Shown: one piece after another, positions 10,867-14,193 of the stretch | How the letters are laid out: each line of letters starts with the position of its first letter | How positions within the stretch are numbered: the first letter of the stretch is position 1 | DNA from: an uncultured Eubacteriales bacterium | GTDB taxonomy: Bacteria; Bacillota; Clostridia; TANB77; CAG-508 | Length of the DNA: 32,000 nt | Direction of reading: 5' to 3' | Assembly: GCA_902492015.1 (NCBI GenBank) | Contig: CABUJR010000015.1 | Location: forward strand, 3,950 to 35,949 | Made by a program: the position numbers and the translations under genes | The notes under the pieces: model-generated | Told to the model about the DNA's origin: nothing | Seen by the model: the letters and a program-made list of their open reading frames with translations, nothing else | Database searches by the model: none

Positions 10867-12453
10867 TTATTTACTTTGTTCTTCTAAATATTCATCATAA
10901 GTACATTCTCTTACTATAACATTGTTATTACTAATATCTATTATCTTATTTGCAACTGTCTGTGTTAATTGATGATCATGTGATGTAAATAATAATATTC
11001 CCTTATATTTTTGCATTCCATCATTTAATGCTGTAATTGACTCCATATCTAGATGGTTTGTTGGTTCATCAAATATTAAAAAGTTTGCACCAGAAAGCAT
11101 TAATTTTGAAAGCACACATCTTACTTTCTCTCCTCCTGATAGTACTGTAACTTTTTTTAATGCTTCTTCTCCAGAGAAAAGCATTCTTCCTAAGAAACTT
11201 CTTACATAAGTTTCATCTGGGTCTTTTGAATATTGACGAAGCCAATCAGTTATACTCATATCTTGTTCAAATAAATAATTATTATCTTTTGGAAAATAAT
11301 CTTTAGTTATTGTTGTTCCCCAGATTAATTCACCTTCATCTGGTTCTATTTCTCCAGCAATTATTTGGAATAAAACAGTTTTTGCTATTTCATTATCTGA
11401 TAAAAGAGCTATTTTATCCTCTCTTTTTACTGTAAAACTAATATTATCTAAGACTTTTTCTCCATTTATAGTTTTTGATATATTTTTAACTTCTAAAATT
11501 TCTTTTCCTTGTTCTCTATCTGGTTTAAAATCTATATAAGGGTATTTTCTATTAGATGGTTTTATTTCATCTAATTCAATTTTTTCTAAGGACTTCTTTC
11601 TAGAAGTAGCTTGTTTTGATTTTGAAGCATTTGCACTAAATCTAGCAATAAATTCTTGAAGTTCTTTAATTCTTTCTTCTTTTTTCTTATTTGCCTCTTT
11701 CATTTGTTTTAAGGCAAGCTGACTAGATTCATACCAGAAATCATAATTTCCAGGATAAACTTTAATTTTTCCAAAATCCACATCTGCTATATGTGTACAA
11801 ACTTTATTTAAAAAGTATCTATCATGAGATACAACAATTACAGTATTCTCAAAATCAATTAGGAAATCTTGTAACCAATTAATTGTTTTTATATCCAAGT
11901 CATTAGTAGGCTCGTCTAATAAAAGAACATCTGGATTACCAAACAATGCTTGTGCTAAAAGTACTTTAACTTTATCTTTAGCTTCTATTTCACTCATATA
12001 TTTATAATGTAAATCTGTATCTATTCCTAAATCATTTAAAAGTTTAGCTGCATCAGATTCTGCATTCCAGCCATCAAGCTCTGCAAATCTTTCCTCAAGT
12101 TTTGCTGCTTTCATACCGTCTTCTTCTGAAAAGTCTGGTTTAGAATATATAGCATCTTTTTCTTTCATTATTTTATAAAGTTCACTATTTCCCATCATAA
12201 CAGTATCTATAACTGTATATCCTTCAAAAGCATAGTGGTCTTGTTTTAAAACAGATAATCTTTCACCTTTGTCTAAAATAACTTCTCCTTTATTTGGTTC
12301 TATCTCTCCTGATAAAATTTTTAGAAAAGTTGATTTTCCAGCACCATTTGCTCCTATTAAACCATAACAATTTCCTTTTGTAAATTTAATAGTTACATCT
12401 TCAAAAAGTACTCTTTTTCCAAATCTTAAAGTTACACCATTTGATAAAAGCAT
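10867..12453 (-). CDS. ABC-F family ATPase (two fused ABC domains, no TM domain), E. coli YbiT-like
   Basis: The protein is 528 aa with RBS aggagg. NBD1 has GANGAGKST and LLLDEPTNDLD. The linker is RFSANASKSKQATSRKK. NBD2 has LSGGEKVR, IFDEPTNHLD and SHD. The second Walker A is degenerate (SDNEIAKT). Confidence 0.9.
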   Translation of the reverse strand: MLLSNGVTLRFGKRVLFEDVTIKFTKGNCYGLIGANGAGKSTFLKILSGEIEPNKGEVILDKGERLSVLKQDHYAFEGYTVIDTVMMGNSELYKIMKEKDAIYSKPDFSEEDGMKAAKLEERFAELDGWNAESDAAKLLNDLGIDTDLHYKYMSEIEAKDKVKVLLAQALFGNPDVLLLDEPTNDLDIKTINWLQDFLIDFENTVIVVSHDRYFLNKVCTHIADVDFGKIKVYPGNYDFWYESSQLALKQMKEANKKKEERIKELQEFIARFSANASKSKQATSRKKSLEKIELDEIKPSNRKYPYIDFKPDREQGKEILEVKNISKTINGEKVLDNISFTVKREDKIALLSDNEIAKTVLFQIIAGEIEPDEGELIWGTTITKDYFPKDNNYLFEQDMSITDWLRQYSKDPDETYVRSFLGRMLFSGEEALKKVTVLSGGEKVRCVLSKLMLSGANFLIFDEPTNHLDMESITALNDGMQKYKGILLFTSHDHQLTQTVANKIIDISNNNVIVRECTYDEYLEEQSK

Positions 12454-12573
12454 TATAAAAACCTCCTAATTATTTTAACCATATTATTATACCTTATTTT
12501 TATTTATATTTCAAATGTTTTCTGAAATTTATATTATATTACATTGTTATTATTTTATTAATTATTATACTCT

Positions 12574-12602
12574 TTGACTTATGTAAACAGAAGTGGTATA
12601 AT
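12574..12602 (+). promoter_or_regulatory. Consensus sigma-A promoter with extended -10
   Basis: It reads TTGACT (12574-12579), a 17-nt spacer, then TGgTATAAT (12594-12602). It lies about 100 nt upstream of the 12706 ORF and outside the inverted repeats. Confidence 0.6.
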
Positions 12603-12640
12603 ATGTATATGTTTGAGTAATCAAACTAATATTGAAAATT

Positions 12641-12684
12641 GAATAAGGATTTCTAGTTCAGATTGGGTTTTGATGTGCTCCGGA
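12641..12684. repeat. Left arm of a nested inverted repeat bracketing the 12706..13008 gene
   Basis: The outer 9-mer gaataagga (12641-12649) and inner 17-mer ttttgatgtgctccgga (12668-12684) are the exact reverse complements of 13115-13123 and 13079-13095. Confidence 0.85.
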
Positions 12685-12705
12685 TTATTGAAGGAGTGAT
12701 GTACA

Positions 12706-13008
12706 ATGGAAAAAAATTTAGAAGAAATACAAATTATAAACCATTTAATTCAAAAACACATTGAAACCATAAAAAGTGAAGACGTAAAAAGACAAGATAA
12801 AGAACTTAATTATTTACTTATTAAAGAAGCTGTAGAAGCTTTAGTCAGAGAATACAAAAAATCCACTAACCCCCGTACTAAAAAATACTTAAAAAAATCA
12901 ATAATTGAAGTTAATGAAACCTTGTTTGCTTACTTGATTAATTACAATAGATATGACAACAAGATCTTAGAGCTTTATGCGATGCTCGACGAGTTTATAT
13001 ATAACTAA
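12706..13008 (+). CDS. Hypothetical 100-aa helical, Lys/Glu-rich protein
   Basis: It has a strong RBS (gaaggagtg) 7 nt before the ATG. I found no TM segment and no recognisable motif. Confidence 0.6.
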   Translation: MEKNLEEIQIINHLIQKHIETIKSEDVKRQDKELNYLLIKEAVEALVREYKKSTNPRTKKYLKKSIIEVNETLFAYLINYNRYDNKILELYAMLDEFIYN

Positions 13009-13015
13009 TGAAATG

Positions 13016-13069
13016 AAAAAAGTCTTCCTTAAAATCTGAACCTACCCGGGATCAGTAGAAGACTTTTTT
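13016..13069. terminator. Bidirectional terminator inside the inverted-repeat-bounded segment
   Basis: The stem aaaaagtcttc (13017-13027) / gaagacttttt (13058-13068) has a 30-nt loop containing cccggg. An A6 run lies on the left and a T6 run on the right. Confidence 0.55.
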
Positions 13070-13078
13070 ACAAAAAAT

Positions 13079-13123
13079 TCCGGAGCACATCAAAATTCAA
13101 AATGAATTTTGATGTCCTTATTC
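13079..13123. repeat. Right arm of the nested inverted repeat, with its own internal 10-bp hairpin
   Basis: It contains tccggagcacatcaaaa (13079-13095) and tccttattc (13115-13123). Internally, catcaaaatt (13088-13097) pairs with aattttgatg (13105-13114). The 8-mer ttttgatg therefore occurs at 12668 and 13107 (direct) and at 13088 (inverted). Confidence 0.85.
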
Positions 13124-13177
13124 ATATTATAATAAATTGTTTTTTAAAAGTCAATTATTTAACTTATCTTATAATAA

Positions 13178-13216
13178 AGACCATATATAGATATCTATAT
13201 ATGGTTTATTTTTTTA
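13178..13216 (+). terminator. Perfect 24-bp palindrome plus T-run, a terminator-like element with no obvious upstream gene of its own
   Basis: The palindrome is ccatatatagat|atctatatatgg (13181-13204), followed by tttatttttttat. Confidence 0.5.
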
Positions 13217-13283
13217 TAAATTATTCTTTTATGTCATTTTTATATCATTTCCATTAATATACTTGATGTTTTTCAAAATTAAA

Positions 13284-13307
13284 TATACAATATAGATATA
13301 TTGTATA
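13284..13307. promoter_or_regulatory. Operator-like palindrome or 5' UTR hairpin just upstream of the RBS of the 13326 gene
   Basis: The arms are tatacaatata (13284-13294) and tatattgtata (13297-13307), separated by ga. It overlaps a possible promoter TTGATG (13263-13268), 17 nt, TACAAT (13286-13291). Confidence 0.35.
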
Positions 13308-13325
13308 AAGGGGAGGAATATATTT

Positions 13326-13958
13326 ATGGGAAAATTAGATAATGAACATGATTCTCAGGATAATGCTACCTTTATGCAAGATGACTTAGATACTTCTTTT
13401 GAAGTTAAAGAATCATTATTTGATAAAATAAAATCAGCTTTAACAAGACCACGACTTGGTCCTGGAAATAATGTAAAAACAACAAATATGAGCTTTAATT
13501 CTTGGAGTATTAGATCTACTTTTCGTAAAGCTCTTGAAGCTGTTTCAAATGGAATGTCTAATATGATGAGAAAAAAAGAACCAGAAATAAAAAATGGATT
13601 TTCTACTGTAATAATAGGAAAAGAGGAAAAAACTAAACCTAAGGATTTAGGTGTTGATGAAAAAGAAAATGATCAAACACCAAGAATTTTTGCTGGAAAT
13701 ATTTTTGATTCAAAAACAACAGCTAAAGTTCCTGCCACTCCAGATTTATTAGTTGGGAATACACATATGCAAAAATCAGAAGCTTTAAAAACAGAAAATC
13801 TAGAGGTAGATGAGGAAACTTTACTAAAAGATGATGATAGACAAAAAACACCTCAAACTCAAGATAAAGAAAATGCTAAGTCTTCTCTTAAAGCTGAAGT
13901 TATCAATACTGGAAATAAAGAACAAGAAAAACAAACAGAAGAAGATAGAAGTATTTAA
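13326..13958 (+). CDS. Hypothetical 210-aa hydrophilic protein, probably disordered
   Basis: It has a strong RBS (aaaggggagg). The sequence is rich in K/E/D/T/N with no hydrophobic segment and no recognisable motif. Confidence 0.55.
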   Translation: MGKLDNEHDSQDNATFMQDDLDTSFEVKESLFDKIKSALTRPRLGPGNNVKTTNMSFNSWSIRSTFRKALEAVSNGMSNMMRKKEPEIKNGFSTVIIGKEEKTKPKDLGVDEKENDQTPRIFAGNIFDSKTTAKVPATPDLLVGNTHMQKSEALKTENLEVDEETLLKDDDRQKTPQTQDKENAKSSLKAEVINTGNKEQEKQTEEDRSI

Positions 13959-13985
13959 AAACCTAATTATAATAAAATTTTATAT

Positions 13986-14022
13986 AAAAAATCCTAGTCG
14001 TCAGTTACTAGGATTTTTGTTT
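13986..14022 (+). terminator. Intrinsic terminator after the 13326 gene
   Basis: The stem atcctagt (13991-13998) / actaggat (14007-14014) has an 8-nt loop, followed by tttttgtttt. Confidence 0.7.
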
Positions 14023-14193
14023 TATATGAATAAGTTTAATTGATATTTTATTTCTAAAAAATATTTTCCTCTAATATTTAAATAATAAAAAATAATTTGT
14101 TATTAATATTTATTATATCCTATTTTTCAGTAAAAAACAATTCTTTTATTTTTTCTATATTTTCTATATAATTCATAGTGTGAGGTGATTATT

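Follow-up and report, generated by a model that had tools for sequence, protein, structure and literature searches.

The par locus of Enterococcus faecalis pAD1 (RNA I/fst and RNA II; Fst/Ldr) combines convergent promoters with a bidirectional terminator, sequence repeats, a stem-loop at the Shine-Dalgarno (SD) sequence and an upstream helix at the 5′ end (PMC7472228). Among the key determinants of type I toxin mRNAs are a long-distance interaction between the 5′ and 3′ ends and sequestration of the SD in cis, the toxins themselves being mostly hydrophobic peptides of 20-60 amino acids (aa) (PMC8594479). A locus that can be compared with these systems lies in a 32,000-nucleotide (nt) stretch of contig CABUJR010000015.1 (positions 3,950 to 35,949; the whole stretch is hereafter termed the window), from Candidatus Scatovivens, a member of the uncultured gut Clostridia with a 1.93-Mb genome of 25.8% G+C that is 97% complete. 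It comprises ORF100, an open reading frame (ORF) for a 100-aa protein, and a predicted convergent small RNA (sRNA) that copies parts of the mRNA leader. Together these probably form a par-like antisense module, an explanation that is favoured but by no means secure.

As in par, the locus has convergent promoters and a shared bidirectional terminator, which would give the two RNAs complementary terminator stem-loops; here this is read from sequence only. It likewise has a second complementarity, between the 5′ domain of the sRNA and the 5′ region of the mRNA, that originates from repeated DNA, and it shares with par an intramolecular SD stem-loop and a helix at the very 5′ terminus of the mRNA. 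It is distinct from par in that the product is a hydrophilic, 100-aa four-helix protein, and not a hydrophobic peptide of ~33 aa, and in that the sRNA-complementary site lies upstream of the SD, whereas in par it covers the SD and start codon. In addition, the sRNA at this locus hides its seed behind a copy of the target, so that the DNA shows an inverted repeat besides the direct one. No homology to Fst or RNA II was found using Pfam and Rfam.

Other antisense systems share particular features. In hok/sok and aapA1/IsoA1, as here, the leader has a co-varying complementarity to the 3′ end of its own mRNA, and the SD is sequestered in cis. In contrast to those systems, the 3′ partner of the leader here forms part of the terminator hairpin, a site to which the sRNA is antisense as well, and no processing sites are known; as the 3′ partner doubles as the sRNA target, the sRNA, rather than 3′ trimming, could release the lock. 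Convergent antisense RNAs that overlap at their 3′ ends, as is predicted here, also occur in SprA1/SprA1AS of Staphylococcus aureus and in bsrG/SR4 and txpA/RatA of Bacillus subtilis, and the non-overlapping 5′ domain of SprA1AS acts on the ribosome-binding region of its mRNA. Unlike ORF100, the SprA1, bsrG and txpA toxins are small membrane peptides, and to our knowledge a leader-mimicking hairpin has not been described for SprA1AS, SR4 or RatA. Finally, DsrA and RprA present the same geometry at rpoS, where part of the sRNA is complementary to the upstream strand of the hairpin by which the leader closes off its SD. These two sRNAs are trans-encoded, depend on Hfq and do not overlap the 3′ end of their target; the present genome differs in that Hfq is absent.

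Nested repeats and a predicted convergent sRNA

In a preliminary description, the segment around ORF100 was presented as a single gene with its terminator, bracketed by nested inverted repeats, with the promoter outside. Its elements are all present at the coordinates given there: the outer 9-mers gaataagga / tccttattc (12641-49 / 13115-23), the inner 17-mers, which are perfect (12668-84 / 13079-95), the promoter TTGACT-17-TGgTATAAT, the ribosome-binding site, the 100-aa ORF, the A6-stem-T6 terminator, and the self-folding of the right arm, where a repeat search also recovered a local hairpin at 13087-13115. In the same search both arms merged into one 33-nt inverted repeat (82%). A perfect, non-overlapping inverted repeat of at least 17 nt was reached in just 1/200 dinucleotide shuffles of positions 12300-13500, and the 17-mer has only two sites in the whole genome, even with up to two mismatches. 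A 9-nt inverted repeat was reached in every shuffle (200/200), which places the outer 9-mer alone at chance level; it is still counted as meaningful because it is invariant across all related cassettes. The description had missed a direct repeat whose copies lie in the leader and in the distal half of the right arm (12657-79 / 13096-118).

Also missed was a second near-consensus promoter, TTGACT-17-TATAAT, on the minus strand (13154..13126), with 11/12 matches. It was compared across 18 distinct cassettes from Ca. Scatovivens relatives, with protein identities down to ~30% and a remote member in genome G109. The minus-strand promoter stands at a constant distance from GAATAAGG in 16/18 cassettes (14 by pattern match and two by eye), it is conserved together with GAATAAGGAC and its hairpin, and wherever it is kept a U run lies ~90-108 nt downstream. 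The A run before the terminator stem and the T run after it are also kept in most cassettes. Transcription of the sRNA would begin inside GAAUAAGGA, traverse the right-arm hairpin and the 17-mer copy, and halt at the shared terminator; its start was placed ~7 nt past the -10 box, and its end at the U run following the shared terminator. Throughout its 3′ half the predicted sRNA is antisense to the 3′ end of the mRNA.

The 5′ hairpin of the predicted sRNA folds with -16.9 kcal/mol (z = -4.9), and in paralogous cassettes it is maintained via compensatory changes (CAUCAAAAUUC, CAUUGAUUUC, CAUUGAAUUC and CAUGGAGUUC), as judged from separate folds, the paralogous rows being out of register in the MAFFT alignment. 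The hairpin is palindromic and its 3′ arm, with the flank, copies the leader 17-mer, making the 5′ arm complementary to the leader. These RNA parts outlast the protein: where the proteins are 42-65% identical, the sRNA 5′ domain retains 84-100% and the leader core 67-96% nucleotide identity. A covariance model of the 5′ domain detected 13 copies in 9/75 genomes of the genus, each adjoining an ORF100-family gene in a ratio of one sRNA to one ORF; among these 13 copies none was without an ORF100-family neighbour. A strict sRNA pattern had no match outside the genus in 300 genomes of the family. In Rfam the sRNA scored below threshold for every family, and membership of the top-scoring family, csRNA, was rejected (22 bits against a gathering threshold of 57; E = 3.3). 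A 17-nt exact match between the sRNA 3′ arm and a dxs/transketolase-like gene (C2:89329-89345) was dismissed as a trans target, as 27% of shuffled sRNAs reach at least 17 nt. As a separate observation, L010, L018, L019, L021, L030 and L031, which have unrelated contexts, share the conserved motif (G)GCTTTATTTTTTTG immediately beyond the sRNA promoter, upstream of the -35 box; on the sRNA strand its A-tract, situated around -40 to -60, may act as an UP element, and on the plus strand the motif could serve as a terminator tail.

The features of the locus are collected in Table 1.

Table 1. Features of the ORF100 locus in window coordinates
Feature	Position	Strand	Description or basis
ORF100 mRNA promoter	12574..12602	+	-35 TTGACT, 17-nt spacer, extended -10 TGgTATAAT; 11/12 consensus matches, TG present
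5′-end hairpin of mRNA, GUUUGA-GUAA-UCAAAC	12611..12626	+	Stem kept through two-sided changes in relatives
Near-invariant tract UAUUGAAAAUUGAAUAAGGA, probably single-stranded	12630..12649	+	Alignment of 12 leaders; also in paralogous B cassettes
Leader segment 'mid' UAGUUCAGAUU	12654..12664	+	Between GAAUAAGG and the 17-mer; complementary to own terminator 5′ strand, 13033-13044
Left 17-mer ('X'), upstream strand of SD-sequestering hairpin	12668..12684	+	GCUCC 12677-81 : GGAGU 12693-97
SD GGAG (12693-96) and start codon ATG (12706-08)	12693..12708	+	Sequence
ORF100, 100 aa, hydrophilic four-helix-bundle protein	12706..13008	+	Alignments; predicted structure
Predicted convergent sRNA, ~105 nt	13010..13119	-	Promoter and terminator geometry, kept in 16/18 cassettes
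Shared bidirectional intrinsic terminator, A6 - long imperfect stem - T6	13016..13075	both	Contains leader-complementary site 13033-13044
sRNA 5′ domain (right arm of the preliminary description)	13079..13123	-	GAAUAAGGA 13123..13115; palindromic hairpin 13115..13087; leader 17-mer copy 13095..13079
sRNA promoter TTGACT-17-TATAAT	13126..13154	-	-10 box ends 2 nt ahead of right-hand GAATAAGGA
Second palindromic bidirectional-terminator-like element	13178..13207	both	Terminator-like on both strands; separates cassette from next gene ORF210

Leader, pairings and proposed mechanism

The leader of the ORF100 mRNA is ~97 nt long, and its promoter is conserved as TTGACTTATGTNAAC...TGNTATAAT in most cassettes, being weaker in L020/L021; this promoter and the minus-strand one are both kept in 16/18 cassettes. 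The hairpin at the 5′ end takes the forms GUUUGGC/GCUAAAC, GUUUAGC/GCUAAGC and GCUUUGC/GCUAGGC in relatives, and resembles an upstream helix that protects an mRNA 5′ end. The tract that follows is near-invariant across cassettes (UUGAAAAUUGAAUAAGG), and in the window it terminates in the left outer 9-mer, which holds an SD-like AAGGA; an AAGGA in this position recalls 5′ stabilisers of the STAB-SD type. The -35 box of the promoter sits inside a conserved near-palindrome, TTGAC-TTAT-GT(A/C/T)AA (12574-12588), found at the same position in L031, L029, L028 and L030 and perfect (TTGAC-TTAT-GTCAA) in both L031 cassettes. From its sequence this looks like an operator for a dimeric regulator; no regulon sharing it was found in the genome of the window with up to two mismatches.

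Three short pairings are predicted to operate on this leader. The GCUCC of the 17-mer pairs with the SD, and translation is therefore proposed to be blocked in cis. The stems of this hairpin co-vary in relatives (CUCUCAUAA:UUAUGGGAG, CUCCUAU:AUAGGAG and CUCUCAAAA:UUUUGAGAG), and the mean probability of the SD being paired is 0.78 in the cassettes, compared to 0.41 in 300 control genes of this genome. The second pairing joins the mid segment to the mRNA's own terminator, and its complementarity is retained with unrelated sequences, such as GAUUUCGGUG:CACCGAAAUC and CGAAUCAU:AUGAUUCG; further mid segments that are unrelated yet terminator-complementary include UGAAUUCAGA, UUAGGAAUUC, AUGUUGG and ACAUGGGU..UCAGAU. 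For 7/15 leaders the cognate terminator is the best of 15, with a mean of -14.4 for cognate pairs against -10.5 kcal/mol. Since the sRNA is antisense to the mRNA terminator, the mid segment has the same sequence as the terminator 3′ strand in the sRNA, and leader and sRNA would compete for one site.

The third pairing is between the 5′ arm of the sRNA and the leader. In the window this duplex has an energy of -23.5 kcal/mol, with 21/23 positions paired, including three G·U pairs; the leader and the sRNA arm differ at five positions, of which three are G·U-compatible. Values for the other cassettes range from -10.6 to -20.5 kcal/mol. In tandem paralogues, changes in the leader copy are matched in the sRNA copy, as illustrated by cassette B of L029, where AUGUACUCUCAA appears in both RNAs.

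The proposed mechanism follows that of type I toxin-antitoxin loci such as par of pAD1. The sRNA would dock on the complementary mRNA terminator, competing with the leader fold-back at that site and displacing it, after which its 5′ arm would swap from its own 3′ arm to the leader strand upstream of the SD. The resulting multi-site complex would control both the translation and the stability of the ORF100 mRNA. As to the sign of this control, repression, with an antitoxin-like sRNA holding a putatively growth-inhibiting ORF100 off, is favoured, though given only roughly an even chance within the model. The main alternative is activation by freeing of the SD, as by DsrA for rpoS, since the SD could just as well be released when the sRNA pairs with the anti-SD strand. 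If the module is real, the par/type I RNA layout also serves a protein beyond the usual 20-60 aa, and the locus provides a well-defined case of three short pairings: leader with SD, leader with own terminator, and sRNA with leader.

Several results weigh against a par-like antisense module. The sRNA, its ends and all of the RNA-RNA pairings are predictions from sequence; the sequence elements, with their conservation and co-variation, are observed, and the transcripts, the direction of regulation and the toxicity are inferred. ORF100, hydrophilic and 100 aa long, differs from type I toxins in both size and character. No preference for the cognate partner was seen when the sRNA 5′ arm was paired with leaders, nor when the sRNA anti-SD was paired with SD regions (-10.4 vs -9.3 kcal/mol in the second case). 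The sRNA-complementary site lies upstream of the SD and not over the SD or start codon, a position compatible with either sign of regulation, and the sRNA 5′ arm is held in a 13-bp hairpin, such that pairing in trans costs about the energy it yields. In full-length minimum-energy folds, the 5′-3′ pairing is clear (at least 13/24 nt) in 2/12 cassettes and partial in two more. Finally, in genome G223 (L028/L020) both sRNA promoters and the minus-strand U runs have decayed, while both ORFs and leaders are intact. This may represent decay of the RNA partner, and fits poorly with an essential antitoxin. G223 is the only genome with a decayed sRNA promoter, and the promoter loss there is accompanied by loss of the minus-strand U run, an observation that counts in favour of the predicted sRNA unit.

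Alternative explanations of the repeats

Two convergent transcripts with sequence in common are the most likely source of the nested inverted repeats, rather than recombination or transposition at these sites. The preliminary description had offered an invertible cassette as one explanation, in which a recombinase flips 12685-13078 between the 17-bp repeats, turning ORF100 off in a phase-variable manner. The perfect 17-bp inverted repeats, with the promoter outside, are what such an inverton would have, and the genome does encode 15 tyrosine and two serine recombinases. None of these adjoins the cassette, however: the nearest tyrosine recombinase (PF00589; C15:2507-3004) is ~13.6 kb off and outside the window, and no PF00239 match occurs on the contig. 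Furthermore, ORF, leader and right arm have a single orientation in 18/18 cassettes and in duplicate assemblies; the repeats diverge and co-vary as RNA elements, shrinking in relatives to ~14 nt with mismatches; and the right arm, judged by its sequence, carries its own promoter and would belong to a separate, convergent transcription unit. Inversion is regarded as highly improbable, allowing that a minor inverted subpopulation may exist beside the assembled orientation. A passenger cassette like a miniature inverted-repeat transposable element, or derived from an insertion sequence, with the repeats as its termini, has fared no better and has next to no likelihood in our estimation. It would suit an accessory unit that sits in a variable spot, has other contexts in distant relatives and is occasionally duplicated in tandem, but neither arm has another copy in the genome, and the conserved unit runs past the repeats on both sides to include both promoters. 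The absence of a target duplication, already remarked upon in the preliminary description, holds here too, and the flanks are too diverged for an empty site to be defined. A lesson for similar loci is that nested inverted repeats around a small gene can mark a convergent sRNA and not DNA rearrangement, and that a search of the opposite strand for a promoter should precede any inverton call.

The preliminary description had also considered a clamp between the 5′ and 3′ ends of the mRNA. Its view of the repeats as RNA elements has been retained, with the amendment that the two arms are predicted on two different RNAs, because the terminator lies between them, and that the co-varying 5′-3′ pairing is instead that of leader 12654-64 with terminator 13033-44. 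A clamp within a single RNA would demand a leaky plus-strand terminator: mRNA reading through to the second terminator (13178-13216) would pair its 3′ tail with the leader (9 + 17 bp, nested), freeing the SD and turning translation on. In such a plus-strand read-through RNA the repeat pairs are indeed nested and perfectly complementary, the second terminator lies ~110 nt further on, the plus-strand U runs are short in several relatives (T3-T4 in L013, L021 and L003), and the differences between leader and right arm tend to be G·U-compatible (by our own count ~5, vs 2 that are not). This explanation leaves the conserved minus-strand promoter and the minus-strand U run without a role, though, and it has to contend with the self-folding of the right arm, which competes on either strand, and with a strong terminator in the window, where a 12-bp A/U-extended stem is followed by T6. 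It is accordingly held to be unlikely.

To the same degree unlikely is a shared binding site, in which GAAUAAGGA and the 17-mer are recognised by one factor (a host RNA-binding protein, a ribonuclease, the 30S subunit via AAGGA, or ORF100 itself) and the sRNA acts as a leader-mimicking sponge. Leader and sRNA do share sequences in the same sense, which change together in paralogous cassettes; GAAUAAGG is invariant where everything else differs; and AAGGA matches the SD core. Yet CsrA and Hfq are both absent from the 97%-complete genome, which led to rejection of a CsrA-type sponge (suggested by GGA motifs in leader and sRNA), and the ORF100 proteins are mostly neutral to acidic and show no nucleic-acid-binding fold. 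In addition, as the sRNA hairpin is palindromic, its identity to the leader follows from its complementarity to it, and no third factor is needed. It is very doubtful that the right arm is a functionless remnant of an ancient inverted duplication of the leader. The resemblance of the leader to the right arm runs slightly upstream of GAATAAGGA (TTGAAAATTGAATAAGGA vs TTATAATATGAATAAGGA), as a duplication might leave it, but the right arm is conserved above the coding sequence where the proteins are 42-65% identical, and the segments shared with the leader are differently ordered in the sRNA, so gene conversion cannot maintain the likeness.

The ORF100 family and its genomic contexts

ORF100 evolves as a coding sequence, with substitutions by codon position of 23/11/49. 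Its AlphaFold2 model is a four-helix bundle (mean confidence score, pLDDT, 93.6), and members of the family have grand average of hydropathy (GRAVY) values of -0.25 to -0.64 and isoelectric points (pI) of mostly 5.3-7. Searches of Pfam, NCBIfam and PADLOC gave no match to ORF100, and a search of PHROGs none that was significant; a sequence search of the PDB returned nothing usable, and Foldseek found no informative neighbour in the PDB or BFVD. The family is small, with only 14 relatives in a collection of 5.8 billion proteins, and a profile search yielded 24 cluster representatives among 1.8 billion proteins. For this unannotated family of some two dozen cluster representatives, the RNA layout would, if the model is correct, provide a first functional handle. 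A broader interpretation, which is tentative and rather doubtful, is that these cassettes represent a novel family of two-part modules under RNA control in the uncultured Clostridia of the gut, in which a leader-mimicking convergent sRNA would check a soluble four-helix protein. In these modules the terminator strand would compete with the leader, the seed would be masked by a copy of the target, and antisense binding at the 3′ end would be relayed over ~400 nt to the ribosome-binding site by release of the fold-back; on this view ORF100 would be either a regulator or a type I toxin of a novel kind.

Across the relatives the whole unit is conserved, comprising the mRNA promoter, the 5′ hairpin, the invariant tract, the 17-mer region, the SD hairpin, the terminator, and the minus-strand promoter with its hairpin. 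Four genomes carry two tandem cassettes ~700 bp apart: L028 (G223:C87), L029 (G325:C1), L030 (G323:C51) and L031 (G329:C14). The proteins of each pair are ~30-35% identical, and the leader, terminator and sRNA sequences are particular to each cassette and match one another within it.

The cassette is an accessory unit of patchy distribution that is sometimes duplicated. In the window it lies between a gene for an ABC-F protein and one for a protein dependent on flavin adenine dinucleotide (FAD). The gap between these genes (window 12454-14184; L037-L059) is a variable spot with different small genes in each species, and in G317 the two genes are only ~490 bp apart. Next to the ABC-F gene the cassette is absent in 21/23 genomes of the genus, and in distant relatives it is found in other genomic contexts. 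In an empty-site comparison at the ABC-F gene, the flanks were too diverged to define the edges of an insertion. The neighbouring gene, ORF210 (13326-13958), belongs to no Pfam, NCBIfam or PADLOC family and has no significant match in PHROGs; it adjoins the cassette only in the close relatives L003-L009.

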